From: Verrucomicrobiota bacterium
Lineage (GTDB): Bacteria; Verrucomicrobiota; Verrucomicrobiia; Limisphaerales; UBA8199
NCBI GenBank assembly: GCA_038209025.1
Contig: JBBQYD010000002.1
Coordinates: 1 to 46,622 of the forward strand
Direction of reading: 5' to 3'
DNA length: 46,622 nucleotides
The stretch's first letter is position 1; each line of letters opens with the position of its first letter. The translations under genes and the position numbers were made by a program. This document shows positions 9,980 through 43,713 of this stretch, piece after piece. Below the pieces are notes generated by a model that saw nothing but the letters and a program-made list of their open reading frames with translations, did not search any database and was not told the origin of the DNA.

Positions 9980-10136
9980 GACTGGTTTGAAAAACCCGTC
10001 ATTCCTGGTCCTTGCGCCAAGGCGATCTATTTTTCAAACACGCTTCCAGAGCGCCGGGTGTCCAGGGGCTTGAACCGCCACGCTGCTTGACCAGGGGTGT
10101 CCTTTGCATTAGGAGTGAACTGGCTCGGAACAATCA

Positions 10137-10754
10137 ATGAATAGCGCACCCTGGTCTGCCAAGCTGCCTCGCATGAGTCCCGCGCGGGCGTTCGCGACGG
10201 TTTTCATGGCGGTTTTTCTGTTCATCTTCATCGCCAGCACGCTGGTTACCTTCATGCTGCCGGAGACGTATAGGGCCAGTGCCCGCGTGCTCGCTCCGGG
10301 GGCGGCCCATTTGCGGGCATTCCAATCGGCCGAATTGCTGCGGGAAGTATCGCGGCAGCTCCATCTGCCCGAAACCTTTGCCGCTGGTTATGGCGAAAGC
10401 AAACCTTTGGAGGAAGAGCGGGTGCAGGACTTGTTACGGCGGGCTGTTCAAGTACGGCGCCTGGCGGGGACGGACCTGGTGGAAATCCGGGTCTATGGTC
10501 GTTCTCCAGCGGAGTGCGCGCAATTGGCCAACGCGATTGCCGAAACCGGCGCGCAGCCGGCCCGGTCCGGCTCGGGTTCGGATTCGCTCAAAATTGTCGA
10601 TCGAGCCGTGCCCCCGCTCAAACCCGCGCGCCCGAATAAACCGCTGAACCTGGCACTCGGGGCGGTGGTGGGCGTTTTTCTGGGAACCATGGCCGGCGGG
10701 GTTGGCGCCAAGCTCGCCGTGGGCTTTGATGGACAAGGCCCGAAAAGTGCCTGA
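10137..10754 (+). CDS. Small Wzz/GumC-like polysaccharide chain-length-determinant family protein (two TM ends, short periplasmic loop)
   Basis: ATG at 10137. N-terminal TM plus FMLPETYRASARVL (Wzz N-terminal P-x-Y motif region). C-terminal IVDRAVPPLKPARPNKPLNLALGAVVGVFLGTMAGG (proline-rich motif followed by TM2, as in Wzz/GNVR C-termini). Confidence 0.55.
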   Translation: MNSAPWSAKLPRMSPARAFATVFMAVFLFIFIASTLVTFMLPETYRASARVLAPGAAHLRAFQSAELLREVSRQLHLPETFAAGYGESKPLEEERVQDLLRRAVQVRRLAGTDLVEIRVYGRSPAECAQLANAIAETGAQPARSGSGSDSLKIVDRAVPPLKPARPNKPLNLALGAVVGVFLGTMAGGVGAKLAVGFDGQGPKSA

Positions 10755-10780
10755 GGCCGTTGGTGGTGGCGGGAAAACGC

Positions 10781-11719
10781 TTACCTGCCCGGTTTATCCA
10801 GCAGCTTCAGTCCACGCATCCATTTTTCGGCCAACAGGGGCCAGCGCGTGATCTCGTCGGCGGTGGGCCGCAAGCCGTAGCCATGCCCCCCCTCGGCATA
10901 GACATGCAACTCGGCCGGCACTTTGGCCTGTTGCAACGCCAGGTAATAATTCACCGTGCCGGACACGGGAATTGCATCGTTGCCGGCATGTACCATAAAA
11001 GTTGGGGGCGACTTGGGCGAGACCTCGACCTCGGCATTGAGCACTGGAAAGTCCGTCTTCACGAGGTAGGCGGGATAAATCAACAGCGCAAAGTCCGGAC
11101 GGCAACTCAGCTTGTCCGCCTCATCGACCATTTTATAGGTGCGATTGGCCCACTGTGCGCAGGCGGTGGCGCTGAGGTGCCCGCCGGCGGAAAACCCCAT
11201 GATGCCGATGCGCGTGGGGTTGAGGCTTAGTTCCGATGCCCGGGCGCGAAGCAGGCCCAGAGCCCGTTGCGCGTCCTGCAAAGGAGCTTGGTAGCGCTCG
11301 CGATCGGCTCGCTTGGGCACGCGGTATTTGAGCACAGCCGCGGTGACGCCGAGGGTATTCAGCCATTGGGCGACTTCCTCCCCTTCGAGGTCAAAAGCCA
11401 GAATGTTGTATCCGCCACCCGGGCAAATGACCACCGCGGTGCCGGTGGCTTTCGCGGTGGCCGCGGGGTAAATCGCCAGGGTTGGTTGAGCCACATTGCC
11501 AATGCGCACGACCGGTTTGCCGGCGACCTTCCTGCCATCGGGCCCGGTGGTGTCCTTCTCAGGCGGCAATTCGCCGGTGTCACCCGGGGCCTGGCCCGGC
11601 CATAAGGCGATGGGGGGCAACGGGGCCGCCAGGAGGGCGGCATTAAAGATGAAGGTGAAGAGCAGCGTTGACAGGCAAGGCGCGAGCCTTGCGGCGGATG
11701 GCGTTTTCATGAGGCTCAC
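10781..11719 (-). CDS. Secreted alpha/beta-hydrolase (esterase/lipase-type, BD-FAE/fold-3-like)
   Basis: Signal peptide (LLFTFIFNAALLAAPLPP). VICPGGGY (oxyanion-hole region). Nucleophile elbow GIMGFSAGGH (GxSxG). C-terminal HVYAEGGHGYG. Its start overlaps the stop of the upstream gene by 4 nt (11716-11719). Confidence 0.75.
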   Translation of the reverse strand: MSLMKTPSAARLAPCLSTLLFTFIFNAALLAAPLPPIALWPGQAPGDTGELPPEKDTTGPDGRKVAGKPVVRIGNVAQPTLAIYPAATAKATGTAVVICPGGGYNILAFDLEGEEVAQWLNTLGVTAAVLKYRVPKRADRERYQAPLQDAQRALGLLRARASELSLNPTRIGIMGFSAGGHLSATACAQWANRTYKMVDEADKLSCRPDFALLIYPAYLVKTDFPVLNAEVEVSPKSPPTFMVHAGNDAIPVSGTVNYYLALQQAKVPAELHVYAEGGHGYGLRPTADEITRWPLLAEKWMRGLKLLDKPGR

Positions 11720-26289: not shown

Positions 26290-27330
26290 CTAGCTGACCG
26301 GAAGAATAATGGCAAACTTCGCGCCGGGTTCGGATGGGTTTTCGAGGGAGACCACGCCGCGGTGCTCCCGCACGATGCGCTCCGTTATGGGCAGCCCCAG
26401 ACCCGTGCCATTTGGCTTGGTTGTGAAAAACGGTTGGAACAAGTTCCGGCAGCCTTCCTCGCACATTCCGGGGCCGGTATCTTGAACTGTCAGGCGCAGC
26501 CGGTCCGGCCCCCCAGGACTGGCGGGGGACAAGTTTTGAGTGGTGATCGTCAGCGTGCCGCTCTGGCCCATGGCCTCGAACGCGTTCAGGAGCAGGTTGA
26601 GAAACGCCTGCTGCAAGTCCGGCTCGGAGCCGGTTAGAAGGTCGGGCCGGGCGTCGAACTGACACCTCAACTGGAGGTTATGGCTCCGCATCTGGGGCTG
26701 CACCAGCCGCAGCAGATAATCCAGCGAGTTGTGCAAATGAAACGGGGCTCTGGTTGGCTCGCCTGGATTTACAAAGCGCAGTACCCGGCCGGAAATTTCG
26801 TCGATGCGCCCCAATTCGCGGCGGACAATGGTGCCCAACTCGGCTTCGGGCTGTTTTTCGAGCAGCAGGTCCACGAAAGTCTTGCTGGCGACCAGCGCGT
26901 TCTTGATCTCATGAGCCATCATGGCGGAGAGGGTGCCGATGCTGGCGAGACGTTCCAATCGGCCCAGGGCCTGCTCCACCTGTTTCGCCTGGTTTTGCAG
27001 CACGATAATCACCTGCGGGCCGCAGAAGAAGGCGGAGAGTTCGAGCTCCAGCCGGGTGCCGGAGACCAGCGTTAGCATGTCTTCCCGCTGGGGCAGGGAG
27101 GCACCCCGTTCCCCGCATTCGGACGCCAATTCGGAGATTGTTACTGGCAGGTCTCCAAGCCTGACGCGATGTGGCTCCGCAACGGGCGTGATACCCAGGA
27201 GCGAGGCGGCTTCAGGAGTTAGAAGGGCGGTTTGTGATGCCGTATCCACCAAGCAGATCGCCTGCCCCCCCCGAAAACCGGGGTGCTTGGCAATGCCAGG
27301 CTGGCGGCCAGGATTTTGGACGTCGTCCAT
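26290..27330 (-). CDS. Cytoplasmic sensor histidine kinase (N-terminal PAS-like region, HisKA, HATPase_c; NtrB-like)
   Basis: H box LSAMMAHEIKNALVA, N box FLNLLLNAFEAM, G1 VQDTGPGM, F/G2 PFFTTKPNGTGLGLPI. No TM segments. Confidence 0.85.
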   Translation of the reverse strand: MDDVQNPGRQPGIAKHPGFRGGQAICLVDTASQTALLTPEAASLLGITPVAEPHRVRLGDLPVTISELASECGERGASLPQREDMLTLVSGTRLELELSAFFCGPQVIIVLQNQAKQVEQALGRLERLASIGTLSAMMAHEIKNALVASKTFVDLLLEKQPEAELGTIVRRELGRIDEISGRVLRFVNPGEPTRAPFHLHNSLDYLLRLVQPQMRSHNLQLRCQFDARPDLLTGSEPDLQQAFLNLLLNAFEAMGQSGTLTITTQNLSPASPGGPDRLRLTVQDTGPGMCEEGCRNLFQPFFTTKPNGTGLGLPITERIVREHRGVVSLENPSEPGAKFAIILPVS

Positions 27331-27463: not shown

Positions 27464-28801
27464 TTAGAAGCGCCAGCGGTACGCCAGAGACATCAAATGG
27501 ACCGTGATTTTGTAGGTGCCGTTAAACGCGGCGGTTTGGTTGTTATTGAACTCCCGGGTGTCGTAAAAATCCGCCCCGTAGGCCGCTTCCAGCGAGTGGC
27601 CGTGGTAATGGTAACCCAGCCCAACCGTAAACACGTTCTGGTCGGCATCCGGGATCGTGGGCGAAAAGGTCCTATCCGGGACCGGGCTTCCATAAAACTG
27701 GTAGCCGGCGCGCATCACCCAGTTCTTCGCGAACTTCCAATCGCCACCAATCCCAACGGTGAAGGTGTCCTTCCAGTCCTGGTTGATGCTGCGCCCGGGC
27801 AAAAGGATGTTATTGTTCCCAATGTCGAGGGGCAGCTTGTCGAAACGGGAGAACTCCAGCCATTCCACATCCGCTCCGAGCCGGATTTTGTCCGTGACCT
27901 GAAATCCGTAGCCCAGGGCGATGATCGTCGGAAAACGCATCTGGGAATCAAAAGCGCTTTTTGAGGTGGCGCCCAGAAAGGCCGCGGCTGCGGGCGGCAC
28001 CTCGGTGATTTTAAAATCGCCGTCCAGATCAACGGTTACCGGTGATCGGTAGGTCAGCGCCAGCCGATGGCGCTCGTTCACCAGCCAGGTCAGTCCCAGG
28101 TTGGCGCCAATGCCGATGCCATCACCCCGCATCTCCGCTTTGCCTTCCGGTTCGGTGCCCGTGCCAATGGGTGGCGGCAAGGCCATCCAGGGGAAATAGT
28201 TTTTGAGCGTGAGCTCGCTCCACATCACATCGAGGCCGGCGCCGAACCGCAGTTTTTCATGAAGCTTCACCGCCGCGCCGGGGTTGATGTTGATGGTTTG
28301 CAACTCCGCATAATACGGAGAGGTGTAGCGCAGCGCGCCTCCCGGGGCGAAGGCGGAGGAGTCCGAATCCCATTCGCTGCCAATCCCGTAGGGTGTGGTT
28401 ACGCCCAGGCCCACCGCCCAGGTGTCCTGTTGCAGAGGGACACCGACGAACAGATTCGGCAGGAATTTCCACGGGTGAATGGTTTTGGCGTGCTGGCCGA
28501 GAGGGGAATCGAATTCCGCGCTGATGTTGACCACCGTCGGCGTGAGTTGGAGTTCCACATCCTGCAGCTCCAGCAGGTTGGCCGGATTTTGATGGATGGC
28601 CGAGGCGTCGTCCACGTGGGTGATGCGTCCCCCGGAGCGGCCGAGGTTAAATGTGCCCGGGGGCGGGTTTCGGAACCCTTCGCCGTTGGCCGTCAGGGTG
28701 AGGGCGCAGATGGCCGCCGTGAACCCGCCCGCCAGGTTCATGGCCGACCGGCGTGAACTGGGGCGGTCCAGTATTTCGTTGAGCTGTTGTTTAGGTTTCA
28801 T
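27464..28801 (-). CDS. Outer-membrane hydrophobic-compound channel, OMPP1/FadL/TodX family
   Basis: Signal peptide (NLAGGFTAAICALTLTANG). N-terminal hatch-like GFRNPPPGTFNLGRSGG. Alternating beta-strand pattern throughout. Terminal aromatic residue (..SLAYRWRF). About 445 aa, as for FadL. Confidence 0.75.
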   Translation of the reverse strand: MKPKQQLNEILDRPSSRRSAMNLAGGFTAAICALTLTANGEGFRNPPPGTFNLGRSGGRITHVDDASAIHQNPANLLELQDVELQLTPTVVNISAEFDSPLGQHAKTIHPWKFLPNLFVGVPLQQDTWAVGLGVTTPYGIGSEWDSDSSAFAPGGALRYTSPYYAELQTININPGAAVKLHEKLRFGAGLDVMWSELTLKNYFPWMALPPPIGTGTEPEGKAEMRGDGIGIGANLGLTWLVNERHRLALTYRSPVTVDLDGDFKITEVPPAAAAFLGATSKSAFDSQMRFPTIIALGYGFQVTDKIRLGADVEWLEFSRFDKLPLDIGNNNILLPGRSINQDWKDTFTVGIGGDWKFAKNWVMRAGYQFYGSPVPDRTFSPTIPDADQNVFTVGLGYHYHGHSLEAAYGADFYDTREFNNNQTAAFNGTYKITVHLMSLAYRWRF

Positions 28802-29079
28802 TCTGTTCTAGTGTTTGCGACACAGTTTGTCCAAATCCCGGACACCATGGATTCCGGTCCCGAGTTGCTGCCGTCTGATGTTCGAGCGCTGCCGGGCCTG
28901 GTTAAGTCCCCGACCCGAGTCAGCAGCATGGGCAGTAGCAAAGGCGATGCCAGCCCCATCATCCCTGCAAGGTGCCCGTCTGTCGATTTCCTTAGTGATT
29001 GGCCCGGAAAATGTTTATAGTTTTTCCGGGTCGGCCTTTGGGAAACTCGGCAAAGGAACCACGAGCAGAACGAACCGAC

Positions 29080-30507
29080 ATGACAGAGGCAAAAAAAGAA
29101 CAGACGTTTGATAGCTGGGTATTGTTCCGGGATGCGCAAGGCGCGGAAACCCGCGCTGCCGTGCAGCGGCTTAACCGTCACCAGGTGGTGTTCGAGCATT
29201 GCACGCTGGATAGCGTGCTGCGCGTTTCCGAGGCGCTCGACAACTTTCAGATGTTCTACAATGGCGCTCCCATTTACGGCGGGCGCGCGGTGGTGCGCAC
29301 GCTGATCAACTCCGGTCCGACCACGCTATGCGAAGCCAAGCTGGAGGATGGCTGGTCTGATCTCCAGGCGCTGGCGGGGACAAATTCTGCCGGGTTGCTC
29401 CAACGGTATAAGGACTTTTTTGCCGGGCATAAGAAACTTCATCACCTGAGCCCCGAATACACCGCTGCGGTGGCTGGACTGCAAAACTATCTGACAGATG
29501 TGCGGTTGTGGCTGGATCACCTGGCGCTGGGCTTGACGTCCAATAACGGCCGCACCCGCGGCGACCTGGAACTCGAAACCGCCCGGCAAATCCAGGAACC
29601 GATTGCGCGGACGATCTTTGAGTTATTTGACCGATTCGAAGAAGTGGGCCGTAACGTGCCGGAGGAACTCGTGCCCGCCTACTATGCGTATGCCCAGCGG
29701 CAGGTCCGTCCGCTGCTCATGGATGCGCCCTTCGTGTTTCGCACCTTTCGCAAGCCCCTGGGCTACGCCGGTGACTACAAGATGGTGGCGATGATGTTTG
29801 GTGAGCCTTGTGAAGGCCCCTCGATTTTCGCCCGCGTGCTCAATTCCTATTCCCTCTCCCTGCCCCCAATTGTCGCGCATCGCAATCGCATCGACTACCT
29901 GGCTGATAACCTGGAGCGGGAAGTCTTGCGGGTTGCCCGTGCCCGGCGGCGTCCGCGCATCTACAACCTGGGTTGCGGACCCGCACGGGAGGTCCAGAAA
30001 CTGGCCGCTGCCTCCAGCGCCATGAATGAAGCGGATTTTACGCTGGTCGATTTTAACGAGGAAACCCTCACCCATGCGCGGCAGGACCTGGAACGGGTAA
30101 GGACCAGCCACGTTCCGCGGATGGACTTGCGTTTTGTCAGAAAATCCGTGCAGCAGGTGCTGAAAGAGAGCACGCGCATTGAAACCTCGGGCGACCTGGC
30201 CTATTACGATGCCGTCTATTGCGCCGGCCTGTTTGACTACTTGTCCACGAACGTCTGCAAGCATCTGGTTGAAGTGTTTTGGCGCATGGTGGCCCCCGGC
30301 GGATTGCTCATGGTGACCAATGTGGACCACCACCCGAGCAAGGCGCAGATGGAATGCTTTTTGGATTGGAATCTCATTTACCGTGACAGTTCGCTGATGC
30401 GCTCGCTCGTTCCCGCCCAAGTCGCCCCGGAGGACGTCGTCCTCAAGCGCGATCCCACCGGGGTGAATATTTTCCTCGAACTTCGCAAACCTGCGCATGG
30501 TGAGTGA
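29080..30507 (+). CDS. Class I SAM-dependent methyltransferase with a ~110-aa N-terminal beta-rich extra domain, PhcB-like architecture (start uncertain: TTG 28999, ATG 29011 or ATG 29080)
   Basis: Motif I RIYNLGCGPAREV, post-I acidic FTLVDFNEETL, motif II YDAVYCAGLFDYL, motif III VAPGGLLMVTNV. The N-terminal WVLFRDAQGAETRAAVQRLNRHQVVFEH...YGGRAVVRTL resembles small PilZ-like barrels (unverified). The stop overlaps the next gene's ATG region by 11 nt. Confidence 0.7.
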   Translation: MTEAKKEQTFDSWVLFRDAQGAETRAAVQRLNRHQVVFEHCTLDSVLRVSEALDNFQMFYNGAPIYGGRAVVRTLINSGPTTLCEAKLEDGWSDLQALAGTNSAGLLQRYKDFFAGHKKLHHLSPEYTAAVAGLQNYLTDVRLWLDHLALGLTSNNGRTRGDLELETARQIQEPIARTIFELFDRFEEVGRNVPEELVPAYYAYAQRQVRPLLMDAPFVFRTFRKPLGYAGDYKMVAMMFGEPCEGPSIFARVLNSYSLSLPPIVAHRNRIDYLADNLEREVLRVARARRRPRIYNLGCGPAREVQKLAAASSAMNEADFTLVDFNEETLTHARQDLERVRTSHVPRMDLRFVRKSVQQVLKESTRIETSGDLAYYDAVYCAGLFDYLSTNVCKHLVEVFWRMVAPGGLLMVTNVDHHPSKAQMECFLDWNLIYRDSSLMRSLVPAQVAPEDVVLKRDPTGVNIFLELRKPAHGE

Positions 30508-31900
30508 GAAAACCACAGTCGAAATCCCGCCCCCGGTGCCGGAAGCCGATTATGAACGGCAGATCATGGTGCGGCACCTGCGGGTTGGTTGTTACCTCGT
30601 CATGGTGCTCATGCCGGTGGGGTTCATCCTCGATTCGGCTTATTACTACGACGATCGCTGGCTGTTCCTGATCTTTCGTTTGACCTGTTCGCTCATTCTG
30701 GTGCCCATTCCCGGGCTGCTCCGCAGTAACTTTGGCCTGCGCCATTACCAGGCGGTGGGATTGTTTGTGGCCTTGCTGCCCGCCTTTTTCATTTGCTGGA
30801 TGATTTATGAAAAGGAAGGGGCCGCTTCGCCTTACTATGCGGGGCTTAATTTGATTTTGCTGGCCATCGCGTTTGTCTTGCGCTGGAGCGTGGGGCTGAG
30901 TCTCCTCACCTTGACCATCATCACCACGATGTATGTGGGCGCCTGCCTGTTGCACGGGTTTCCCCCGGACAATCCGCAGCGGGCTTTAAGCGAATTTGCC
31001 AACAATCTTTACTTTCTCGGGCTGACGGGGGTGATCGTGGTAACCGGCAGCCGCATTCATCACAAACTGCGTTTGCGTGAAACGGCCTTGAGCCAGCAAC
31101 TGGCGCGCAGCAAGCTGGATGTGGAGACCAGCAACCAGCGGCTGGAAGGAACCATCCAACAATTGCGCACCACCCAGTTGCAACTGGTGCAGTCGGAAAA
31201 ACGACGCGCTTTGGGTGTGCTGGCCGGCGGCATCATCCACGACATCGGAAACACCCTCAATCACGCGCGCACCAATCTCTTTGCCCTGCGCAAGAAATTC
31301 GCCGCGATCAGTTTCGAGCAGAAAACAACTCTTGACCAGATCTCAGCGGATGTTGAAACGGGCATCAAACAGGCCATCAGCACCGTCCAGCGGGTTCGCC
31401 TCTATACCCATCCGGATACGGAATCGCGCGAACTGGTGGAATTCCGGGAAATTCTCGAGTCGGCACTTATGTTCACGAGTTCTCGCTTGCGGGATCGGGG
31501 GGTGGTGCTGGAGCAGCAACTCGAACCCGGGCTGGCCATCTGGGGAAACAAACAGAGCCTCATAGACGTGGCGGTGAACCTCATCCTCAATTCGGTGGAC
31601 GCCCTCACGCTCAAGCGCTTTTCCGGCAGCGATGACCCGGTGATTCGCATTGAGAGCAAAACGTTGGAAGGCCGGATAGTCGTGGTCCTTCGCGACAATG
31701 GCGTGGGCATTGATCCCGCCATCCTCGACCAGGTTTTTGATCCCTATTTCACCACGAAAGACGTGGGCGAAGGCACCGGCCTGGGCCTGTCCACCTGCAA
31801 AAACACCGTGGAGCAGTACGGAGGCTCTATCGCGGTTCGTTCCGAGCCGGGACAGTTCTGCGAGTTTACCCTTGAATTTCCGGTGAAAGAAAACCTATAG
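30497..31900 (+). CDS. Polytopic membrane sensor histidine kinase (about 6 TM helices, no periplasmic domain), PhcS-like position
   Basis: Hydrophobic helices fall within residues about 25-190 (LVMVLMPVGFILD, WLFLIFRLTCSLILVPIPGLL, AVGLFVALLPAFFICWMIY, LNLILLAIAFVL, LSLLTLTIITTMYVGACLL, LYFLGLTGVIVVTG). A coiled coil follows. H box LAGGIIHDIGNTLNHA, N box NLILNSVDAL, G1 LRDNGVGID, G2 GEGTGLGLSTC. Confidence 0.85.
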   Translation: MVSEKTTVEIPPPVPEADYERQIMVRHLRVGCYLVMVLMPVGFILDSAYYYDDRWLFLIFRLTCSLILVPIPGLLRSNFGLRHYQAVGLFVALLPAFFICWMIYEKEGAASPYYAGLNLILLAIAFVLRWSVGLSLLTLTIITTMYVGACLLHGFPPDNPQRALSEFANNLYFLGLTGVIVVTGSRIHHKLRLRETALSQQLARSKLDVETSNQRLEGTIQQLRTTQLQLVQSEKRRALGVLAGGIIHDIGNTLNHARTNLFALRKKFAAISFEQKTTLDQISADVETGIKQAISTVQRVRLYTHPDTESRELVEFREILESALMFTSSRLRDRGVVLEQQLEPGLAIWGNKQSLIDVAVNLILNSVDALTLKRFSGSDDPVIRIESKTLEGRIVVVLRDNGVGIDPAILDQVFDPYFTTKDVGEGTGLGLSTCKNTVEQYGGSIAVRSEPGQFCEFTLEFPVKENL

Positions 31901-31914
31901 CCACCACCCACACC

Positions 31915-33174
31915 ATGGATCAGCACTATAACTACAAGGAATTCGCCATCCTCTATGTGGATGACGAAGAAATGTCTCTCTCGGGTTTCGCCCGGGCATT
32001 TGAAGACGATTTTCGCATCTACACCGCTAGCAGTGCCCGGGAAGGACTCAAGCTCCTGGAGCAGCATAAGGACGAAATCGGGCTGCTGATGACGGACCAG
32101 CGCATGCCGGGGGAGAAGGGCATCTGGCTGCTGGAGAAGGCCCGGCAGTTGGCCCCCAAAATGATTCGGATCCTGGTGACCGCGACGACGGAGTATGACG
32201 TGGCCATCGCGGCCATCAACACGGGCGCAATCTATCGGTATGTCCCCAAACCCTGGGACCCCGAGCAACTCGGCATTACCATCAAGCGCGGTCTGGAGTT
32301 TTTCCTGGTCCAGCGCGAGCGGGATCAATTGCTGCATGAGAAGATGTCGGTCCTGCGAAACATGATGATGGCGGACCGGATTGTCAGCCTGGGATTGCTG
32401 GCCGCGGGGCTTAGCCACCACATCCGGAACCCTCTGACAGCGGTGAAAACCTTTCTGGACCTTGCCCCAGCCAAGATGGAGGAGGAAAAGGCGGGCATGG
32501 ACGGCTTGCGGGACCCGGAGTTCTGGAAAGAGTACTACCAGAACGCGCAGGCCCAGCTTGAGAAAATCAATACCCTGCTAAAGAACCTCTGGAGCGCATC
32601 GGATCCTTCGTCGGTCACGTTTGGCGACCAGGTGAAGGTGCGTGAAGTGATTGAGGAAGCCCTGGCCAGCCTGAAGCCGGAGATCGAGGCCAGAGGCGTG
32701 ACCCTCGAAAATGAGGTGCCGCAGGATTTGCCGCAAATCAAAGCCGACCGCCTTAAGATACGCCGGCTTTTTGACCTGCTGCTGAAGGATGAACTGGCCA
32801 GCCTTCCGCCAGGTTCCAAGGTGCGCTTTTCCGCGGAACTGCGCTCGTCACTGGGTTATCAGGAGGTCCTGGTGAAGGTGCAAGACAACGGCCCCGGATT
32901 GCCTAAAGATTCGCTGCGACTGCTCTTTGATCCGTTTGTGGTGCGCACCGACAGCCCCATGGAATATGGCATCAACCTGATGGCCTGTTACTTCATCGTG
33001 CATCACCACGCTGGCAGGATCGAGGCGGACAGTGTGGCAGGGCAGGGCACCACATTCAGCATTTCCCTGCCGGTCAATCCCCTCGCCGGCGGCGCGCACA
33101 GTTCCGAACAAGGCTCGCAGGAGCGGACCATGCTCAGTCAGGCGCTTTGGGAGAAGTTGTTGTCCCCTGAGTAG
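31915..33174 (+). CDS. Response regulator with histidine-kinase-like output (REC + HisKA + degenerate HATPase_c), PhcR-like architecture
   Basis: REC: ILYVDDEEMSL..LLMTDQRMPGEKG..ILVTA..IYRYVPKPWDPEQL. H box GLLAAGLSHHIRNPLTAV. G1 VQDNGPGLP is present. The N-box position reads LLLKDELAS and the G2 position reads PMEYGINLMACYF instead of GxGLGL. Confidence 0.8.
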   Translation: MDQHYNYKEFAILYVDDEEMSLSGFARAFEDDFRIYTASSAREGLKLLEQHKDEIGLLMTDQRMPGEKGIWLLEKARQLAPKMIRILVTATTEYDVAIAAINTGAIYRYVPKPWDPEQLGITIKRGLEFFLVQRERDQLLHEKMSVLRNMMMADRIVSLGLLAAGLSHHIRNPLTAVKTFLDLAPAKMEEEKAGMDGLRDPEFWKEYYQNAQAQLEKINTLLKNLWSASDPSSVTFGDQVKVREVIEEALASLKPEIEARGVTLENEVPQDLPQIKADRLKIRRLFDLLLKDELASLPPGSKVRFSAELRSSLGYQEVLVKVQDNGPGLPKDSLRLLFDPFVVRTDSPMEYGINLMACYFIVHHHAGRIEADSVAGQGTTFSISLPVNPLAGGAHSSEQGSQERTMLSQALWEKLLSPE

Positions 33175-33442
33175 TTCCGCAAAAAACAGGACCCGGCTTG
33201 CGTAGTTCTTCGCCGGCCACATCGGTAATCAACCGGTTTGCCAGAGGGAGGGCTTTTTTGTTACTTCTGTTAACGGCAACATTCTGTTGACCCAAGACCG
33301 CGCTTATGCATCATCTGGTGGCGGTGACAGTCATGACGAAATTTCTTGCGCCGAATGCAAAACGGTGGCTGTCGCGCAACGGTTAATTGCGTTTTCTTAT
33401 GCTGCCGAGCGGATCGTGGCTATGGTAAGCTGAATAAAAGGC

Positions 33443-35482
33443 GTGGCGAATGCAGGCATGAAAACACTTTTGGTAATGGCGGAACATCCCGACCTCGCTG
33501 AGTCGTTGCGCGCCGGCTTGAATGCGGAGCACTACCGCATCATTGAGCGGACCAACCTGGACGATGCGGAACCATTTCTCACCCATGGGCTGGTGGACGC
33601 CTGCATCCTGGACGTGGAACTTAGCGAGCCGCAAGGCGTGTGGTCGCTTGAAAAACTGCGCCGCCGCGCTCCCCGGTGCCCCATTATTATTTACACGGGC
33701 ACCCGGCAGTGGGAATGGGAGGAGGAGGCCTATCTCCAGGGGGCCCGCCATGTCCTCACCAAACCGGTGCGGACCCGCATGTTAAACACCGTTCTCGACC
33801 AGCTCTGGCAGGCTCAACTGCCCGGGCGGGGCGCCGTTCCAGCGACTCTCGAAATCGCCCCGTCGCCGAGCCGGCCAATGCCGCTGGAGCCCCGTGGGGG
33901 CTCGGGTGCCATGCCCTCATTGGGCGTGCTGCGGGATTTTTCGGCGATTCTCACCCACTCCCTGAACGCGGAGGCCATGCTTAAACAGTTCCTCCTTTTG
34001 CTCCGCGAAATCCTGAGCATCAACAAGGCCGCGCTTTTCCTGCGGCAGCCGGCCGGCGGCTTTGGCGAACGCTCGGTGCTTTCTGAGGCCCGCAAACTGC
34101 GCTGCATGTCCGCCCTGGGCATCTCGCCGGGGTTGCTGGAGCATTTTGAACTATCCATGGATGCCGGGATTGGCGGGTTGCTGTTTCGGCTGGGGCGGAT
34201 TTTGCGCAAGGGCGCTGAGGAAACCCGCCAGGACCTGGACGCGCAAAACGAGTTTGAGGTGCTCGGCGGGCAGGTGGCCGTTCCCATCCTGGATCGCGAA
34301 ACCTTGCTGGGAGTGGCGGTGTTTGACGGACGCATCACCGGCGAGCCGCTCGTGAATTCGGAGCTGGAGCTGATCTTTCACCTGCTTGAGCAACTCGGCC
34401 TGGCGGTGAAGAATATCTGGCTCCACGACCAGCTTGCGGCCAACCTGGAAATGATGACCGGAGTGCTGCGCGAATTGAGCAGTGCCTGTGTCGTTTTCGG
34501 AGGCAACCTGACCATCCTGCACGCCAACAAGACCGCGCGGCGTTATTTCAGCAAAGGCGAGCGGCGGAGCGGCGAATTGGAGTTCAGCGACCTTCCCCAG
34601 TTGCTGGGCGCCCGCGTTCACCAGGTGCTCAAGACGGGCACCGCCGTGCCACCCTTCAAGTTTGAAGCCGCCCCTGGCGCGCTTTACAGCATCACCATCG
34701 TTCCGTTTCAGCGGCAGGTGGCTGGTTTGCCGACCTCCGCCCTCCTGCTGGCCGATGACATCACCCAGGCGGAGCAGGTCAAACGCCTGGAGATTGAGGT
34801 GGCCAACTCGCGCCTCGTGAAGACCGCCGCATTCGCGCTTACCAATGAAATCGGGAACGCCATAACCCCGCTGTCCAGCTTGCAGCAAATGCTCCCCGAG
34901 TGCCGCCAGGACCAAAAGTTTCTCATGGAGCTGGAGCACGTTATGGGCAGCAGCGTGGACCGGCTTTCACGCCGCGGCAACCAGCTCAAACTGCTCTGCA
35001 GGGAAAACCTGATCAGCCAGGAGCCTGTCCTGATTGGCGCGCTGATCGAAGAAGCCTACCGGGAGGCCCGCAAGCACTCCTTTGCGCCGTCGCCGCAGTT
35101 GCGCCTGGAACTGGCGGACAAGAACACCCGGGTGGTGGTGGACCAGACCGCCTGCAAACAGGCGCTTAGTGAGATTTTGCTCAATGCCATCCAGGCCAAC
35201 CCGGAGAACCCGATTGTCTGTGTCAGGACCTCGGTCCAGATCAACGGCAAATCCGAGGTGTACATTGAAGTGGAGGATAACGGCACCGGGTTCACGCCCG
35301 AAGCCGCGCAGAAGGCTTCCACACCGTTCTTCACGACGCGGGTGGCGGGGATGGGGCTGGGTCTGGCGGTCAGCCGCCGCATTCTCGACATGCATCGCGG
35401 GAAGTTCGAGATTCTTCCGGGCGAGCAAGGCAAGCCGGCCGTCGTTCGGGTCACGCTGCCGCTCCAGCCTGCCCTGGGATAG
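33443..35482 (+). CDS. REC-like + GAF + PAS + kinase-like protein lacking the phospho-acceptor His (pseudo-histidine kinase)
   Basis: GTG start at 33443 (ATG 33458 is an alternative). Receiver-like N-terminus (LLVMAEHPDL..CILDVELSEP..IIIYTG..VLTKP). GAF-like VAVPILDRETLLGVAVFDGRITGEPL. The H-box position reads AAFALTNEIGNAITPL (Asn codon at 34844-34846 where AHEIRNPL is expected). The ATP lid is intact: LLNAIQA, VEDNGTGF, PFFTT, GMGLGLAV. Confidence 0.8.
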   Translation: MANAGMKTLLVMAEHPDLAESLRAGLNAEHYRIIERTNLDDAEPFLTHGLVDACILDVELSEPQGVWSLEKLRRRAPRCPIIIYTGTRQWEWEEEAYLQGARHVLTKPVRTRMLNTVLDQLWQAQLPGRGAVPATLEIAPSPSRPMPLEPRGGSGAMPSLGVLRDFSAILTHSLNAEAMLKQFLLLLREILSINKAALFLRQPAGGFGERSVLSEARKLRCMSALGISPGLLEHFELSMDAGIGGLLFRLGRILRKGAEETRQDLDAQNEFEVLGGQVAVPILDRETLLGVAVFDGRITGEPLVNSELELIFHLLEQLGLAVKNIWLHDQLAANLEMMTGVLRELSSACVVFGGNLTILHANKTARRYFSKGERRSGELEFSDLPQLLGARVHQVLKTGTAVPPFKFEAAPGALYSITIVPFQRQVAGLPTSALLLADDITQAEQVKRLEIEVANSRLVKTAAFALTNEIGNAITPLSSLQQMLPECRQDQKFLMELEHVMGSSVDRLSRRGNQLKLLCRENLISQEPVLIGALIEEAYREARKHSFAPSPQLRLELADKNTRVVVDQTACKQALSEILLNAIQANPENPIVCVRTSVQINGKSEVYIEVEDNGTGFTPEAAQKASTPFFTTRVAGMGLGLAVSRRILDMHRGKFEILPGEQGKPAVVRVTLPLQPALG

Positions 35483-38290: not shown

Positions 38291-39673
<1,383 letters not shown>

Positions 39674-40430: not shown

Positions 40431-41705
40431 TCAGCCGTAAACCATGAATTGTCCCGGCGTCAGTTCGGGTTCCTGATTGCGGATGAATTGAATTTGCAGC
40501 TCGCTGAGCGTGCGGCCTTCGGGCATGAGCAGCGCCCCTTTGGCATTATAAACGCCCTTGGCCAGCACCATCCCCGGACGCAGACCCGAAAGCGGGACTT
40601 CCCGAAGGCGGGCACTGGCCGCAACTGCCGGCAGGCACTGAATGAACAGCCGAACGGCCTCGGGGTCGAAAGCTGAACCGCTTTGGCTGGTGATGGATAG
40701 TTCCCTGGCTTTGCCCTCTCCCGGGGCCGCCGCGTAAGCCGCCGCCAAAGCGAGCAATCGTGCCAGCCAGGGCAGCCTGGCCCCGGCCAGTCCGTCGGGA
40801 TACCCGCCGCCATCGAAACGTTCCTGGTGAGCCCGGATCAGCGTGCCCAACTCCGGCTGCCGCAGGGTGGAGTTGACCAACTCTTCGCCCCAGAGGGGGT
40901 GTTGCCGCACCCATCCCGCCTCGCCTTGCGCCAGCGATTCCGGGTCTTCCAGCCACTGGCGAAGCGGTTCTCTGGGGGCGTTGATCAAGCCAATATCGTG
41001 CAATAGCGCGGCGGTTTCCAGGAGGCGCGAATCCCCGGCCCCGAGCTGCGCTTTCGTGCTCATGATCCGGCATATTTCGAGCGCCTGGTGGGAGCGGGCG
41101 CCCAGGCGAGGCTCGTAGCCGGCCAGAATCTTCAGCAGCAGATGCAGCGCGCCATCCGCCTCGGATCGCAACGCCTGGTTGGCGATTTCAAGTTGTTGAG
41201 CCACGGTTTGCTGGGCGGCGAGATCCTTCCGCAACCCCGCGTTCAGCGCCTGCATTTCCTCCCCCAGCCGGCTGTGGCGCTGAATCAGATCAAACCTTTG
41301 CACGGCGTTCTTGATGGTGACCAGCAGTTCCTCGCGCAGCCAGGGCTTTACGATAAACCGGTAGATTTCGCCCTTGTTGATGGCGTCGATCACGGTATTG
41401 AGGCTCAGTACCGCGGTGATGAGAATGCGTGTGGCATCAGGCTGAACCTCTTTGGCCTGGGCCAGGAACTCCAACCCGGTGAGCATCGGCATCTGCTGAT
41501 CCGTGAGAATCACGGAGAACCGGGTCTTCTGAATTTCTTCCAGCGCCTGGAGCGCATCCGGCGTGGCCACCACCGTGTATCCTTCCAGGCGCAAGGTCTC
41601 GCGCAGGGCCGTGAGCACGATCATCTCGTCGTCCACGACCAGGATGCTTTTCAACTCATCGGATAGGTGCGAGGCGGTATTCATGGGGTCAGGCAAAGAT
41701 GGCAT
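40431..41705 (-). CDS. Response regulator with HD-GYP c-di-GMP phosphodiesterase output (RpfG-like) plus a C-terminal ~90-aa extension
   Basis: REC: ILVVDDEMIVL..VILTDQQMPMLTG..ILITA..IYRFIVKPWLREEL. HD-GYP: ALLHDIGLINAP ... HQERFDGGGYPDGL. ATG at 41705 overlaps the upstream kinase by 17 nt. The alternative ATG at 41684 leaves a 4-nt gap. Confidence 0.85.
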   Translation of the reverse strand: MPSLPDPMNTASHLSDELKSILVVDDEMIVLTALRETLRLEGYTVVATPDALQALEEIQKTRFSVILTDQQMPMLTGLEFLAQAKEVQPDATRILITAVLSLNTVIDAINKGEIYRFIVKPWLREELLVTIKNAVQRFDLIQRHSRLGEEMQALNAGLRKDLAAQQTVAQQLEIANQALRSEADGALHLLLKILAGYEPRLGARSHQALEICRIMSTKAQLGAGDSRLLETAALLHDIGLINAPREPLRQWLEDPESLAQGEAGWVRQHPLWGEELVNSTLRQPELGTLIRAHQERFDGGGYPDGLAGARLPWLARLLALAAAYAAAPGEGKARELSITSQSGSAFDPEAVRLFIQCLPAVAASARLREVPLSGLRPGMVLAKGVYNAKGALLMPEGRTLSELQIQFIRNQEPELTPGQFMVYG

Positions 41706-43713
41706 CGAAGCGTTGAATCATTTCCGTTTCACCGGCGTCTGAACGAACCACGAGTTGGGCTTTCTCCAGGACGGCGGGATCCATCTCATCCTCATTGCCG
41801 CAGACGATCTGGATGGCTATCTTGCCTTGGAAAACCGCGGGCAGCTCCTGCAGCCACTGTTTCCAGGAAGGATCGTCCGGACGAATCAGGGCCAGCAGGC
41901 CGTTGAACCCGGCTTCCTCTGAAATCAGGAGTTCCCTGGCGCGCTCGGGACCATGCGTCACCACCACATAATAATCATGCACGCGCAAGGACTCGGCCAT
42001 GCTGTCGGTCAATAATCCAGGCTCGCCCAGCAACAGCACCCGAAGACGCGTGCGGCGGGAGACCTGCTGCCGTTCGTTCTCGGTGAAATCGGCTTCGGGC
42101 AGCCACACATGCACGGTCGTGCCCGCGTTTTCCCGTGAATCGACGGAGATGGCGCCGCCATGTTTTTCGACAAATAACCCGGCGTTGTAGAGGCCCAGGC
42201 CGGACCCTTTGTTGACCGGTTTGGTGGTGAAGAAGGCGTCAAAGAGAAAAGGCAGATTGCGGGCGGGTATGCCGCACCCGGTATCCTCAACCGACAGGCA
42301 GGCACCCGGCAGCCGAGGGAACGTGCCGTGCCCATTGGTCAGCGGCCGGGCTTCGGTGACGCGCCGGGTGCGCAGCGTGAGCGCCCCCCGGTGCGGCATG
42401 GCATCCGCCGCATTCAAGGCCAGGTTGACCACGACCTGCCGGAACTCGACGCCGTCCATGTACACCGGCTGCGGCTCGGGATCCAGGTCCACTTTCACCT
42501 GGATGCAGCGCGGCAGCACCTTGGCCATCAGTTCCACGATGTCTGACACGACCTCATTCAGGTTGTGATAATCACGCACCCCGGTTTTGCAGCGGTGAAG
42601 GTTCACCATGCGTTGGATTAGTTGAGTGGCCTGCAGCGAGTGGTGCTTGACCATGCCCAACCCCTCGTAAAACGGGTGGTCTTTGCCGGCCTGCGCTAGA
42701 AACAGCTCCGAGAGTGAGAGGATGCCAGACATGATATTTCCGAAATCGTGGGCCAGTCCCACCGTGAGAGTCGCCAGGGTATCTTTCCAGGCGGCGCTCG
42801 AAAGGCGCTTCTCGGCGATGGTCTGACGCGTGATATCCAGCCACACCCCCTCATAGGAAAGGATCAAGCCGGAGAAGCTGGTGATGGCCTTGCGGTGCTC
42901 CAGGAGGTAGGTGATTTGCCCGGTCCGCTGGTGGCGCACGCGGAAGGTGGTGGCCACGCCCTCCGGGCGCTGGGAAGCCACCTTGCATTGATGGCGCAGT
43001 TCCTCGACGTCCGCCTCGTGGATGACCTGCCAGAAACGCTGGGGCTGGCAGCGCCATTCTTCCGGAGCCACCCCCGTGAGAGCGGCAATGCCCGGGCTGG
43101 CATACTGGAAAGAGAAATCGGCCCGTTGCGTGAAGATGACTCCCGGCCAGCGTTGCAGCAGGTTCTCGAGCCGGGACTCAGCCCGCAACAGCCGCAGAAA
43201 GAGCTGCCGGTGATTGTGTTCTCCCGGCTGATATCCGTCCTCAATCAGTTCGGCGGAGGTGGGCAGAACGGAGCTGATGCGAACAAACCAGCCGCCGCTG
43301 TTGGTGGCCACTTCGATCCTGAAATGCTCCGGCTTGCCGTCGCGGGATTCCCTCACGGTGCGTTGGCCAAGGGCAACGCCTTCGGCCGCCATCTCTCCCC
43401 AGGCGGCAGCGCACCTTGGCGCTCTCTCCGCCAATAGTTCCCCAAACTCCCTGCTCACTGCCTCGCCCTCCGATAGATTGAACCAACTCGCCAGTTCGGC
43501 GGAAATGGAGCAAATGCGCCGGTTCAAGTCAACCAGTGCCAGCCCGGATTCCAGCAGCATGCCCTGTGCAATGCCCGCTGGCGGAGACTGTTGCGCTCCG
43601 TCCAGACCCAGGTCTTCAGTTCTTGGCGAAGTCGGACTCATTGATGGCTCCCCTGGCAAAAGCGCCAGCGGCTCACCTCGGTTATCGGATGGATTAACAG
43701 ATGCTTTAGTCAT
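41689..43713 (-). CDS. Cytoplasmic PAS-PAS sensor histidine kinase with a degenerate C-terminal receiver-like domain
   Basis: Two PAS-like blocks (ALVDLNRRICSISAELASWF; WPGVIFTQRADFSFQYASPGIAALTG). H box VGLAHDFGNIMSGI, N box NLALNAADAM, G1 VEDTGCGIP, G2 NKGSGLGLYNAG. The C-terminal VLLLGEPGLL..LLALIRPDD.. lacks the N-terminal acidic pair. Confidence 0.85.
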   Translation of the reverse strand: MTKASVNPSDNRGEPLALLPGEPSMSPTSPRTEDLGLDGAQQSPPAGIAQGMLLESGLALVDLNRRICSISAELASWFNLSEGEAVSREFGELLAERAPRCAAAWGEMAAEGVALGQRTVRESRDGKPEHFRIEVATNSGGWFVRISSVLPTSAELIEDGYQPGEHNHRQLFLRLLRAESRLENLLQRWPGVIFTQRADFSFQYASPGIAALTGVAPEEWRCQPQRFWQVIHEADVEELRHQCKVASQRPEGVATTFRVRHQRTGQITYLLEHRKAITSFSGLILSYEGVWLDITRQTIAEKRLSSAAWKDTLATLTVGLAHDFGNIMSGILSLSELFLAQAGKDHPFYEGLGMVKHHSLQATQLIQRMVNLHRCKTGVRDYHNLNEVVSDIVELMAKVLPRCIQVKVDLDPEPQPVYMDGVEFRQVVVNLALNAADAMPHRGALTLRTRRVTEARPLTNGHGTFPRLPGACLSVEDTGCGIPARNLPFLFDAFFTTKPVNKGSGLGLYNAGLFVEKHGGAISVDSRENAGTTVHVWLPEADFTENERQQVSRRTRLRVLLLGEPGLLTDSMAESLRVHDYYVVVTHGPERARELLISEEAGFNGLLALIRPDDPSWKQWLQELPAVFQGKIAIQIVCGNEDEMDPAVLEKAQLVVRSDAGETEMIQRFDAIFA

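Follow-up and report, generated by a model that had tools for sequence, protein, structure and literature searches.

Does Phc-type lipid-ester signalling, a little-studied form of cell-cell communication, extend beyond the Burkholderiales? The question is raised by a gene cassette in the window, by which we mean the whole stretch of 46,622 nucleotides of Verrucomicrobiota DNA that was analysed. In the phcB-S-R-Q operon (arrangement described in PMC8578825, PMC2864759), PhcB is the 3-OH MAME/PAME synthase and PhcS is a sensor with His230, while PhcR and PhcQ are receiver proteins without DNA-binding domains (PMC8578825, PMC11960443). The original prediction was that the window carries a phcBSR(Q)-like set of genes beside an outer-membrane channel gene. 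The features, with families assigned by homology, are as follows.

26290-27330, minus strand: soluble kinase gene, HisKA plus HATPase_c, 346 aa
27402-27438, minus strand: hairpin past the FadL stop codon, a perfect inverted repeat
27464-28801, minus strand: FadL-family gene, 445 aa, with an N-terminal signal-like segment
28802-29079: divergent control region of 278 bp between the FadL and methyltransferase (MT) genes
29080 (ATG) to 30507, plus strand: PhcB-family MT gene, 475 aa
30497-31900, plus strand: PhcS-family histidine kinase (HK) gene, 467 aa
31915-33174, plus strand: REC-HisKA-HATPase gene, 419 aa
33443-35482, plus strand: REC-GAF-(PAS-like)-HATPase gene, 679 aa

The gene coordinates bear out the predicted tight operon, with the MT and HK genes overlapping by 11 nt and a 14-nt gap between the HK and REC-HisKA-HATPase genes, as well as a FadL gene diverging across the 278-bp control region. 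The 11-nt overlap couples translation of the HK to that of the MT. The longest open reading frame of the MT begins at a TTG at 28999; relatives use an ATG corresponding to 29080. A gap of ~268-270 bp lies 3' of the REC-HisKA-HATPase gene, before the REC-GAF gene. The cassette encodes no DNA-binding regulator, and the window ORFs that were scanned include no PhcA-like LysR gene. Other two-component genes within the window lie at 7784-9979, 40431-41705 and 41689-43713.

We then ask whether the MT could be a signal synthase. Pfam finds a class I SAM methyltransferase domain only at aa ~293-418 and matches no family in the first ~270 aa, consistent with the extra N-terminal domain that had been predicted. 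The three parts of the protein are a PilZ-like beta-barrel at aa 12-88, a helical domain at aa 106-287 and, at aa 293-469, a Rossmann methyltransferase domain; its AF2 model has a pLDDT of 88. Similarity to Phc proteins, which the original prediction had left to be verified, was examined directly against the operons of Ralstonia sp. R-29, Cupriavidus and Paraburkholderia rather than the studied R. solanacearum and R. pseudosolanacearum proteins. The MT matches Ralstonia sp. R-29 PhcB over its full length at 35% identity (E 2e-87) and Paraburkholderia PhcB at 37% (E 1e-91), and it is 34-39% identical to the PhcB of all 80 Burkholderiales phcBSRQ loci in our comparison sample. The matches come from Ralstonia, Cupriavidus and Paraburkholderia phcBSRQ operons; they are co-linear and span the N-terminal extension, and the motifs KPLGYAGDY, AHRNR, GCGPA and YCAGLFDYLS are invariant. 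No other curated methyltransferase family is comparable, the best being a generic Pfam model at ~2e-8, an NCBIfam model at 4e-5 and a PDB match at 0.008. IMG automatically names MT homologs "3-hydroxypalmitic acid methyl ester biosynthesis protein", the KEGG name of PhcB. By homology, these comparisons show the product to be a PhcB-family methyltransferase and, putatively, a signal synthase.

The same enzyme might instead be a CheR-like protein methyltransferase that modifies the adjacent kinase or another signalling protein and so adapts its output, with no small-molecule signal involved. The MT does have weak, sub-threshold similarity to the CheR SAM domain (E 4.8e-4; 20 bits, cut-off 27), PF01739 is among the IMG listings for some homologs, and the PilZ-like barrel could serve in regulation by binding proteins or nucleotides. 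In contrast, the full-length homology to PhcB is far stronger (E 2e-87), structurally the MT comes closest to small-molecule and natural-product methyltransferases, and neither a CheB-like demethylase nor MCP-like methylation helices were found in the cassette. Moreover, PhcB is required for production of 3-OH fatty acid methyl esters (PMC8578825). We therefore regard protein methylation as very improbable, and continue with the PhcB-like reading.

The second gene product has the sensor that had been predicted: hydropathy reveals six hydrophobic segments at aa 27-187, joined by short loops and without a periplasmic domain. A HisKA-like and then a HATPase domain follow (HATPase_c found by Pfam), and motif alignment finds His248 and the N, G1, F and G2 boxes intact. 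The HK is 31% identical to Ralstonia PhcS over 441 aa (E 9e-56). Its homology to PhcS is full-length and includes the membrane sensor domain, for which hhalign gives a probability of 99.9% (E 1.1e-33, 199 columns) and in which both proteins carry the motif WMI..tEG..SpYYaGLNL; a 77% identical homolog is auto-named PhcS by IMG. Judged from its sequence, the HK is thus shown to be a PhcS-family kinase with no sensory part other than a six-helix membrane domain, homologous to the one in PhcS.

Correspondence to Phc is looser further downstream. The third gene had been predicted to be PhcR-like, and its REC-kinase-like architecture (REC, HisKA and HATPase_c by Pfam) agrees with this; the protein is 26% identical to PhcR over 389 aa (E 2e-30), with its C-terminus matching the PhcR kinase core (E 9e-19). 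However, its receiver is closer to PhcQ, the REC plus linker being 41-46% identical. The protein retains Asp61 and His168. In its ATPase domain, which is degenerate, the N box has Asp in place of Asn and the G2 box, too, is degenerate; it therefore probably lacks ATP-dependent kinase activity. Sequence and profile comparison found no PhcQ-type C-terminal domain in the cassette.

For the fourth gene, predicted to encode a REC-GAF-PAS-kinase-like protein, Pfam supports REC, HATPase_c and a weak GAF (E 0.002) but does not confirm a PAS domain; aa 333-445 are aligned by NtrB and PhoR models only. The proposal that it is the phcQ counterpart fails, as the protein has no similarity to PhcQ. It is 87% identical in L082 and 54-57% identical in L085 and L086 (labels L082-L090 denote further relatives), and its H-box His is replaced by Asn in the window, L082 and L090 and kept in L085 and L086. 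Its gene occurs in 5 of the 22 metagenome relatives having enough downstream sequence and is a separately transcribed, accessory and lineage-restricted member of the cassette. The soluble kinase gene, which the original prediction overlooked, sits downstream of the FadL gene on the same strand (HATPase_c 4.3e-21 and HisKA 3.4e-5 by Pfam). A counterpart of 337-341 aa occupies the same position in L082, L083, L084 and L090 and is absent in L085, and it is possibly another accessory member.

Do these genes form a functional unit at all? Class I methyltransferase, HK and REC domains are very common, and with several further two-component genes in the window, unrelated signalling genes could lie by chance beside a generic MT and a FadL gene. 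The linkage data already contradict this. Among 80 metagenome relatives, of which 44 loci were testable for MT-sensor adjacency and 42 for a neighbouring channel, the sensor gene directly follows the MT gene in 44 of 44, as it does in all 80 Burkholderiales loci with sequence and in 8 of 8 fetched relatives. Of the 26 metagenome loci that extend far enough, 25 have a REC-HisKA-HATPase gene after the sensor gene; in relatives with 63-81% MT identity, the cassette is found again, set between different flanks. These results show that the MT and sensor genes are inherited as a pair. Together with the overlapping stop and start codons, the specific homology of MT and HK to PhcB and PhcS, and the FadL enrichment described below, they make chance neighbourhood scarcely credible.

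The relatives also differ in form. In the majority, PhcS-like and PhcR-like modules are fused into a single protein, with the order MT, TM-HK-REC-HK of ~880-900 aa and then a 420-aa REC-HK. This form shares with the window the MT, the sensor domain and the 420-aa REC protein (40-65% identical), and is likewise often neighboured by FadL or OprB. The sensor kinase of the window and of its close relatives is instead short, at 467 aa, and lacks the internal kinase-REC module; this minority form occurs in 1 of 26 metagenome loci and in L082-L085, L088 and L090.

The FadL gene product matches the FadL/TodX/OmpP1 family model end to end (Pfam Toluene_X/FadL, E 7.6e-63, profile positions 13-421 of 421), but scores far below the NCBIfam equivalog cut-off for E. 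coli-type FadL (E 1.5e-34, 119 versus 585 bits). The predicted neighbourhood is conserved in part for this gene: an adjacent FadL gene is found in 20 of 42 metagenome loci, and in L082-L085, L087, L089 and L090, versus 1 of 80 Burkholderiales loci (Fisher p = 2e-10), and the link is thus not accidental. Nor is a channel obligatory, since 16 of the 42 lack a channel gene next to the cassette and another 6 carry an OprB-type porin, a family not known for lipids. This linkage suggests a role for FadL in signal passage; the channel could equally import a substrate or an exogenous cue.

FadL/TodX-family proteins are importers of hydrophobic compounds, and the cassette might accordingly sense the environment rather than population density. 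FadL would then bring in a hydrophobic acid from outside, for example a (hydroxy) fatty acid of environmental or host origin, which the PhcB-like MT would methylate (to detoxify, trap or convert it) and the membrane kinase would report. Consistent with this, FadL is linked, divergently or co-directionally, in about half of the relatives and not in the Burkholderiales systems (1/80), which are known self-signallers, and a sugar-type OprB porin in some relatives fits uptake of varied external compounds. On the other hand, the channel gene is missing in 16/42 loci, synthase and sensor are translationally coupled 1:1, as is typical of autoinducer pairs, and the enzyme and sensor domain are homologous to a pair that makes and senses a self-produced signal (PMC8578825). 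We consider such cue processing unlikely.

On balance, the cassette is probably homologous to, though diverged from, the Phc operon for cell-cell signalling in Ralstonia and Cupriavidus, and its host is a non-Burkholderiales bacterium. The reference loci of both genera show the phcB-S-R-Q order and domain make-up. As in the window, the same three-part PhcB-family MT comes first, followed by a kinase of the PhcS family, whose six-helix sensor is homologous and whose phospho-acceptor His is conserved, then by receiver proteins without DNA-binding domains, all tightly packed in the same order; the Phc operon likewise lacks a cognate transcription factor (PMC8578825). The predicted phcBSR(Q) match holds for gene order, PhcB, PhcS and the PhcR architecture. 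Beyond these, one PhcR/PhcQ hybrid-like REC-HisKA-HATPase protein replaces PhcR plus PhcQ, the fourth gene is not phcQ, and the REC-GAF-kinase-like protein, the soluble kinase and the FadL link are additional.

We infer the signal chemistry and quorum-sensing behaviour of the cassette as follows. Using SAM, the MT would turn a carboxylate of the fatty-acid type into its methyl ester, the reaction that PhcB carries out on 3-hydroxymyristate or 3-hydroxypalmitate; the product would be a neutral, membrane-permeant signal. With no more than 26-37% identity to proteins of the characterised clade, the cassette may have a substrate and product different from those of Phc. The signal would build up outside the cell, return through the co-inherited FadL (in some relatives an OprB-type porin) and partition into the inner membrane, where the six-helix domain of the HK would bind it. 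The HK would autophosphorylate at His248 and pass the phosphate to Asp61 of the REC-HisKA-HATPase protein, whose kinase-like, probably ATP-inactive output may act by contacting other proteins, as a phosphatase or in phosphotransfer. It would likely partner with additional signalling proteins, for example the REC-GAF-kinase-like protein and the FadL-adjacent soluble kinase.

By description, the working resembles that of CqsA/CqsS (Vibrio) and LqsA/LqsS (Legionella), alpha-hydroxyketone systems in which a synthase gene adjoins a kinase whose ~six-helix sensor, without a periplasmic domain, detects a hydrophobic lipid-derived autoinducer. Their synthase, however, is a PLP-dependent acyl-transferase, not a methyltransferase, and we know of no FadL link to either. 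The KO-based naming of IMG, an independent automatic source, gives homologs 62-77% identical to the window proteins the KEGG names of PhcB and PhcS, and our literature search found no paper describing such homologs outside the Burkholderiales. With true PhcB/PhcS relatives outside that order, here in a soil-type bacterium, the reach of lipid-ester signalling probably goes far beyond what the literature describes.

Finally, both ends of the FadL gene carry candidate regulatory sequences. A hairpin with a 17-bp, 100% complementary stem and a 3-nt loop lies 26 nt past the FadL stop and is likely the terminator of its transcript; a strong terminator was predicted here, and the stem is perfect, but the T tail is weak, and a consensus terminator scan missed it because the tail is only moderately T-rich. 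In the control region, an alignment of the window with L082, L090 and L085 has near-invariant intergenic columns only inside a conserved ~45-nt block at 28985-29030 (GATTTCC..GTGATTGGCCCGGAAAATGTTTATAG), which precedes the MT start by 50-95 nt. Positions 29003-29030 contain a 9-bp inverted repeat, and to the eye the block resembles a sigma-54 -24/-12 element.

We re-examined the cassette in the window, in which a FadL-family gene is divergent from genes for a methyltransferase, a membrane histidine kinase and two receiver proteins with kinase-like domains. The original prediction had read it as a phcBSR(Q)-like signal-synthase/sensor cassette with a divergent FadL channel. Its gene coordinates and spacing were correct on re-check, and the genes it listed are all present; a soluble kinase gene at 26290–27330 had been overlooked. 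A Pfam scan confirmed each cassette domain. The genes and gaps are as follows.

26290–27330, minus strand: soluble HisKA-HATPase kinase, 346 aa, directly beyond the FadL hairpin
27464–28801, minus strand: FadL-family gene (Pfam)
278 bp: intergenic gap between the FadL and methyltransferase genes
29080–30507, plus strand: methyltransferase gene (Pfam methyltransferase domain)
30497–31900, plus strand: membrane histidine kinase gene, overlapping the methyltransferase gene by 11 nt
31915–33174, plus strand: REC-HisKA-HATPase receiver protein (REC-HK protein) gene, after a 14-nt gap
33443–35482, plus strand: REC-GAF-HATPase gene, about 270 bp after the REC-HK gene

The phcBSRQ genes have been reported in Cupriavidus and R. 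pickettii (PMC2864759), and papers present Phc as an unusual type of quorum sensing in the bacterial-wilt pathogens and species closely related to them (PMC13220807, PMC2864759). Searching plasmids by tblastn led to a Paraburkholderia graminis locus with a methyltransferase, a kinase and two receiver genes, and species-representative genomes were scanned with the Paraburkholderia methyltransferase. The best 80 of at least 596 matching stretches include Cupriavidus necator and several Ralstonia species and none from the R. solanacearum species complex; the comparisons rest on other Ralstonia, Cupriavidus and Paraburkholderia. The reference loci have four genes, whose products of about 463, 445, 370–390 and 335 aa are a methyltransferase, a membrane histidine kinase, a REC-HisKA-HATPase protein and a REC-only protein. 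The Phc-like window proteins are about 26–39% identical to their Burkholderiales counterparts.

The window methyltransferase (475 aa) was 35% identical to PhcB of Ralstonia sp. R-29 over 465 residues (E 2e-87). Against Burkholderiales PhcB from the best 80 of at least 596 loci, identity was 34–39% over about 460 residues, full-length and co-linear, with E values of 2e-87 to 1e-91 for Ralstonia, Paraburkholderia and 78 further Burkholderiales, and the alignment of both clades contains more than 80 invariant columns. Pfam confines the methyltransferase domain to residues ~293–418, and the ~270 residues N-terminal to it had no family match even at E = 10; this N-terminal extension of the PhcB family is present in the window protein. 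No other curated family came near the PhcB match: generic Pfam methyltransferase domains reached about 1e-8, NCBIfam models at best 4e-5 and PDB entries at best 0.008. Clustering with unrelated methyltransferases, which the original prediction had said would speak against it, was thus not found. In IMG automatic annotation, homologs at 62–64% identity carry the KEGG name of PhcB. The family is large, with 439 clusters at 50% identity matching at E <= 1e-30 and 2566 at E <= 1e-10. Of the seven methyltransferase and kinase homologs that are named to an organism, five belong to the Verrucomicrobiota, under the names Prosthecobacter, Pedosphaera, Verrucomicrobiae and Verrucomicrobiota.

The methyltransferase family is without a solved relative; the best match in a sequence search of solved structures was E 0.008, over 50 residues. 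An AlphaFold2 model of the protein (pLDDT 88, pTM 0.80) has three parts.

Residues 12–88 (window 29113–29343): six-stranded barrel (AlphaFold2)
Residues 106–287: helical domain (AlphaFold2)
Residues 293–469: Rossmann methyltransferase domain (AlphaFold2)

A fold search with the whole model returned only generic small-molecule class I methyltransferases, the best being 3ocj, an uncharacterised Bordetella protein that gives no clue to the substrate; a role in protein methylation is poorly supported. The N-terminal barrel, common to the window methyltransferase and Burkholderiales PhcB, was also modelled alone (pLDDT 84). Its top Foldseek matches were PilZ domains (BcsA, MrkH, Alg44 and YcgR), all weak (E 0.016–0.1, TM 0.56–0.63). 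Pfam gave no PilZ match in the N-terminus, and the c-di-GMP-binding motifs RxxxR and (D/N)xSxxG were not seen by eye in the barrel. The modelled barrel hints that signal synthesis might be under allosteric control, by a nucleotide or otherwise.

The membrane kinase (467 aa) contains six hydrophobic segments within residues 27–187, joined by short loops. It was 31% identical to Ralstonia sp. R-29 PhcS over 441 residues (E 9e-56), in an alignment that begins inside the first membrane helix. Because membrane segments may align through composition alone, we compared the sensor domains as profiles on their own. The sensor domains still matched over 199 columns with a probability of 99.9% (E 1.1e-33), and the motif WMI..tEG..SpYYaGLNL is common to both clades. 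The phospho-acceptor of PhcS in strain OE1-1 is His230 (PMC11960443). His248 of the window kinase aligns with the H-box His of PhcS, and the N, G1, F and G2 boxes are all there; judged by these motifs, the protein is an intact kinase. IMG automatic annotation names a 77% identical homolog PhcS. In our own Pfam scan MASE8 (PF20968) had no match in the window kinase and only E 0.079 in Ralstonia PhcS; a precomputed table assigns PF20968 to the window kinase and to nearly all its homologs.

We conclude from these alignments and profiles that the synthase and the sensor are homologous to PhcB and PhcS. Since PhcB and PhcS labels already stand in automatic annotation, bare homology is no discovery. 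What appear to be undescribed are how large the family is outside the Burkholderiales, the recurrence of an outer-membrane channel and a different relay with a fused sensor and a pseudokinase receiver. Within the literature searched, we found nothing on PhcB/PhcS homologs beyond the R. solanacearum complex, Cupriavidus and R. pickettii.

The overlap of the kinase gene with the methyltransferase gene preserves the phcB-then-phcS order of the Burkholderiales, which is found in every locus with sequence among the best 80 of at least 596. Close relatives (81% methyltransferase identity), one of them in the 6.5-Mb genome record OW818681.1, have the whole arrangement and its flanks in common with the window, and a relative at 63% has the same five genes in wholly different flanks. 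All four relatives at 44–47% keep the methyltransferase, the sensor and a 420-aa receiver protein, and in three of the four the sensor is enlarged to ~880–900 aa with a TM-HK-REC-HK layout.

L086 (relative of the window), 8431–11091: fused sensor gene
L087 (relative of the window), 8442–11138: fused sensor gene
L089 (relative of the window), 8454–11102: fused sensor gene

In the fused sensor, modules resembling PhcS and PhcR belong to a single polypeptide, and the 420-aa protein stands in the place of PhcQ. When metagenome contigs were scanned, at least 586 stretches matched; 80 further loci from these, at 41–64% methyltransferase identity, were analysed by tblastn. A PhcS-like sensor domain directly followed the methyltransferase in all 44 of these loci with enough sequence. 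The methyltransferase and sensor genes are strictly co-inherited, and chance juxtaposition of the cassette genes is poorly supported against this adjacency. The long fused sensor was present in 24 of 26 loci (L096–L169 range) and the REC-GAF gene in 5 of 22. The kinase core of the window sensor most closely resembles the C-terminal one of the two kinase modules in the fusions (46–49% identity), and for this reason the short sensor form may derive from an internal deletion.

Downstream of the sensor, the relay differs from that of Phc: there is no PhcQ, and a single REC-HK protein combines a PhcQ-like receiver with a degenerate ATPase domain. The original prediction had likened this 419-aa protein to PhcR. 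Its architecture (REC-HisKA-HATPase, no DNA-binding domain) is indeed that of PhcR, with 26% identity over 389 residues and a kinase-like half that matches the PhcR kinase core at E 9e-19. However, the receiver and linker are nearer to PhcQ (41–46% identity), the receiver scoring 92–116 bits against PhcQ and 52–91 bits against PhcR receivers. In profile comparisons, what it shares with PhcQ is limited to the receiver and a linker of 57 columns, with nothing of the PhcQ C-terminus. Asp61 and the H-box (DHp) His168 are kept. The N-box Asn is replaced in all seven REC-HK proteins of the window's type, by Asp in six, including the window protein, and by Thr in the relative L087; the Asp-bearing proteins have the motif LLLKDELAS (residues 288–296 of the window protein). 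The G2 box (residues 350–356) is degenerate, its second Gly lost in 7 of 7, whereas PhcR keeps both the N-box Asn and the G2 box. Given these losses, the REC-HK protein is probably not an ATP-dependent kinase, and the pattern of losses with a kept DHp His suggests a conserved output of a pseudokinase or phosphatase type. The best NCBIfam model for its receiver was that of REC-c-di-GMP phosphodiesterases (NF053512, 1.7e-35).

Neither downstream gene fits a PhcQ-type protein, with a receiver and a ~200-aa non-kinase C-terminal region. The REC-GAF gene (33443–35482) was ruled out as PhcQ, to which it has no similarity. The PhcQ C-terminus as a decayed kinase domain was likewise rejected, the profile comparison (E 0.49) giving no relationship. 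The REC-GAF protein (679 aa) has a receiver without the usual acidic DD pair, and its H-box His is replaced by Asn (residue ~468) in the window and in its two closest relatives, L082 and L090. Orthologs at 54–57% identity (L085 and L086) keep the His, and the phospho-acceptor seems to have been lost recently.

The channel gene matched the FadL/TodX/OmpP1 family profile along the entire barrel, with a Pfam PF03349 score of 212.9 bits against a cut-off of 29.7 and a match to profile positions 13–421 of 421. A FadL gene lay immediately upstream of the methyltransferase gene in 20 of 42 metagenome loci, 8 of them divergent and 12 co-directional, and an OprB-family porin gene took this position in 6 further loci of the 42. 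OprB-family proteins are porins of the carbohydrate-selective type.

L086, 5373–6827: OprB gene replacing FadL immediately upstream of the methyltransferase gene
L109, L123, L124, L137, L142, L166 (metagenome loci): OprB gene in the same position

Partial OprB copies were seen in L102, L151, L162 and L167. Within 7 kb, a FadL-like gene was found in 1 of 80 Burkholderiales loci, the best 80 of at least 596. Channel linkage thus differed between metagenome and Burkholderiales loci with Fisher p = 2e-10, a value computed as if the loci were independent, although this does not strictly hold. Outside the Burkholderiales, the methyltransferase–sensor pair is frequently co-inherited with an outer-membrane channel gene. 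The lone FadL-like gene among the 80 loci of the Burkholderiales-dominated genome scan (L052, 11950–13317, in a Methylotenera MAG) immediately follows phcQ in the same orientation, and its product is 26% identical to the window FadL.

The sequence fits two readings alike. In a self-signalling system, the methyltransferase would make a methyl ester of a lipid-type acid, which would cross the outer membrane via FadL and serve as the ligand of the six-helix domain of the kinase; phosphate would then pass from His248 to Asp61 of the REC-HK protein. As the cassette, like the Ralstonia operon, encodes no DNA-binding domain, output would be through protein partners. The main rival is environmental sensing, in which FadL imports an outside compound, the methyltransferase modifies it and the kinase reports it. 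In the Phc system a 3-hydroxy fatty acid methyl ester is the autoinducer, and output runs through the LysR regulator PhcA. The gene for PhcA lies outside the operon even in Cupriavidus (Rmet_2977 versus Rmet_2949-52; PMC2864759). No LysR-family (PhcA-type) gene was matched among the window ORFs scanned.

Returning to self-signalling, we tentatively propose, at somewhat below even probability, that signalling of the Phc type is no peculiarity of Ralstonia and Cupriavidus. On this view, lipid esters, or related methyl esters, would carry cell–cell signals in a large and ancient family of systems spread among uncultured bacteria of soil and freshwater, chiefly Verrucomicrobiota, with a dedicated FadL/OprB-type gate for the signal and a rewired relay of fused sensor-receiver-kinases and pseudokinase receivers. 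If true, Verrucomicrobiota would gain its first defined autoinducer system. The methyltransferase–sensor pair occurs in hundreds of diverged lineages. If its function is conserved, it would offer testable chemical communication for abundant, poorly understood soil and freshwater bacteria, show the route of a hydrophobic autoinducer over an outer membrane, and supply a range of natural variants of synthase and receptor with which to study signal specificity; unrelated soil bacteria might even overhear or jam Ralstonia.

A hairpin with a perfect 17-bp stem lies 26 nt 3' of the FadL stop codon; a consensus promoter and terminator scan missed it and gave no informative sites. Because neither the Rfam nor the tRNA scan matched anywhere in the window, we assign no riboswitch to the control regions. 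Upstream of the methyltransferase gene, a block of ~45 nt (28985–29030) hardly varies among relatives with protein identities as low as 63%, and the rest of the FadL–methyltransferase intergenic sequence is not conserved among them. By eye, TGGCCCG-N4-ATGT in this block resembles a sigma-54 -24/-12 element; the cassette has no gene for an enhancer-binding protein. The soluble kinase gene on the far side of FadL keeps its position in the closest relatives, and in Pedosphaera (L088) a gene for a 470-aa kinase is divergent from the methyltransferase gene, in place of FadL.

The PurA of the window (38372–39673) matches five proteins (P0414, P0415, P0442, P0477 and P0482) at 82–86% identity, from MAGs labelled Binatia, Acidobacteriota (Sulfotelmatobacter, Blastocatellia), Verrucomicrobiota and Dormibacteraeota. 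With PurA so similar under five phylum labels, many such MAG bins must be taxonomically mislabelled, and the labels are unreliable. No organism-named match of the methyltransferase, the kinase or PurA carries a proteobacterial label. With this, and with Phc-like proteins only about 26–39% identical to those of the Burkholderiales, we place the host outside that order; judged by the named methyltransferase and kinase homologs, its phylum is probably Verrucomicrobiota. At 37–4932 (plus strand), unrelated to the cassette, lies the gene for a 1631-aa surface-type protein with SdrD B-like, He_PIG, SprB and DUF1349 domains. Two overlapping minus-strand genes, about 5 kb downstream of the cassette, encode a REC-HD-GYP response regulator of RpfG-like architecture (40431–41705) and a PAS histidine kinase (41689–43713).
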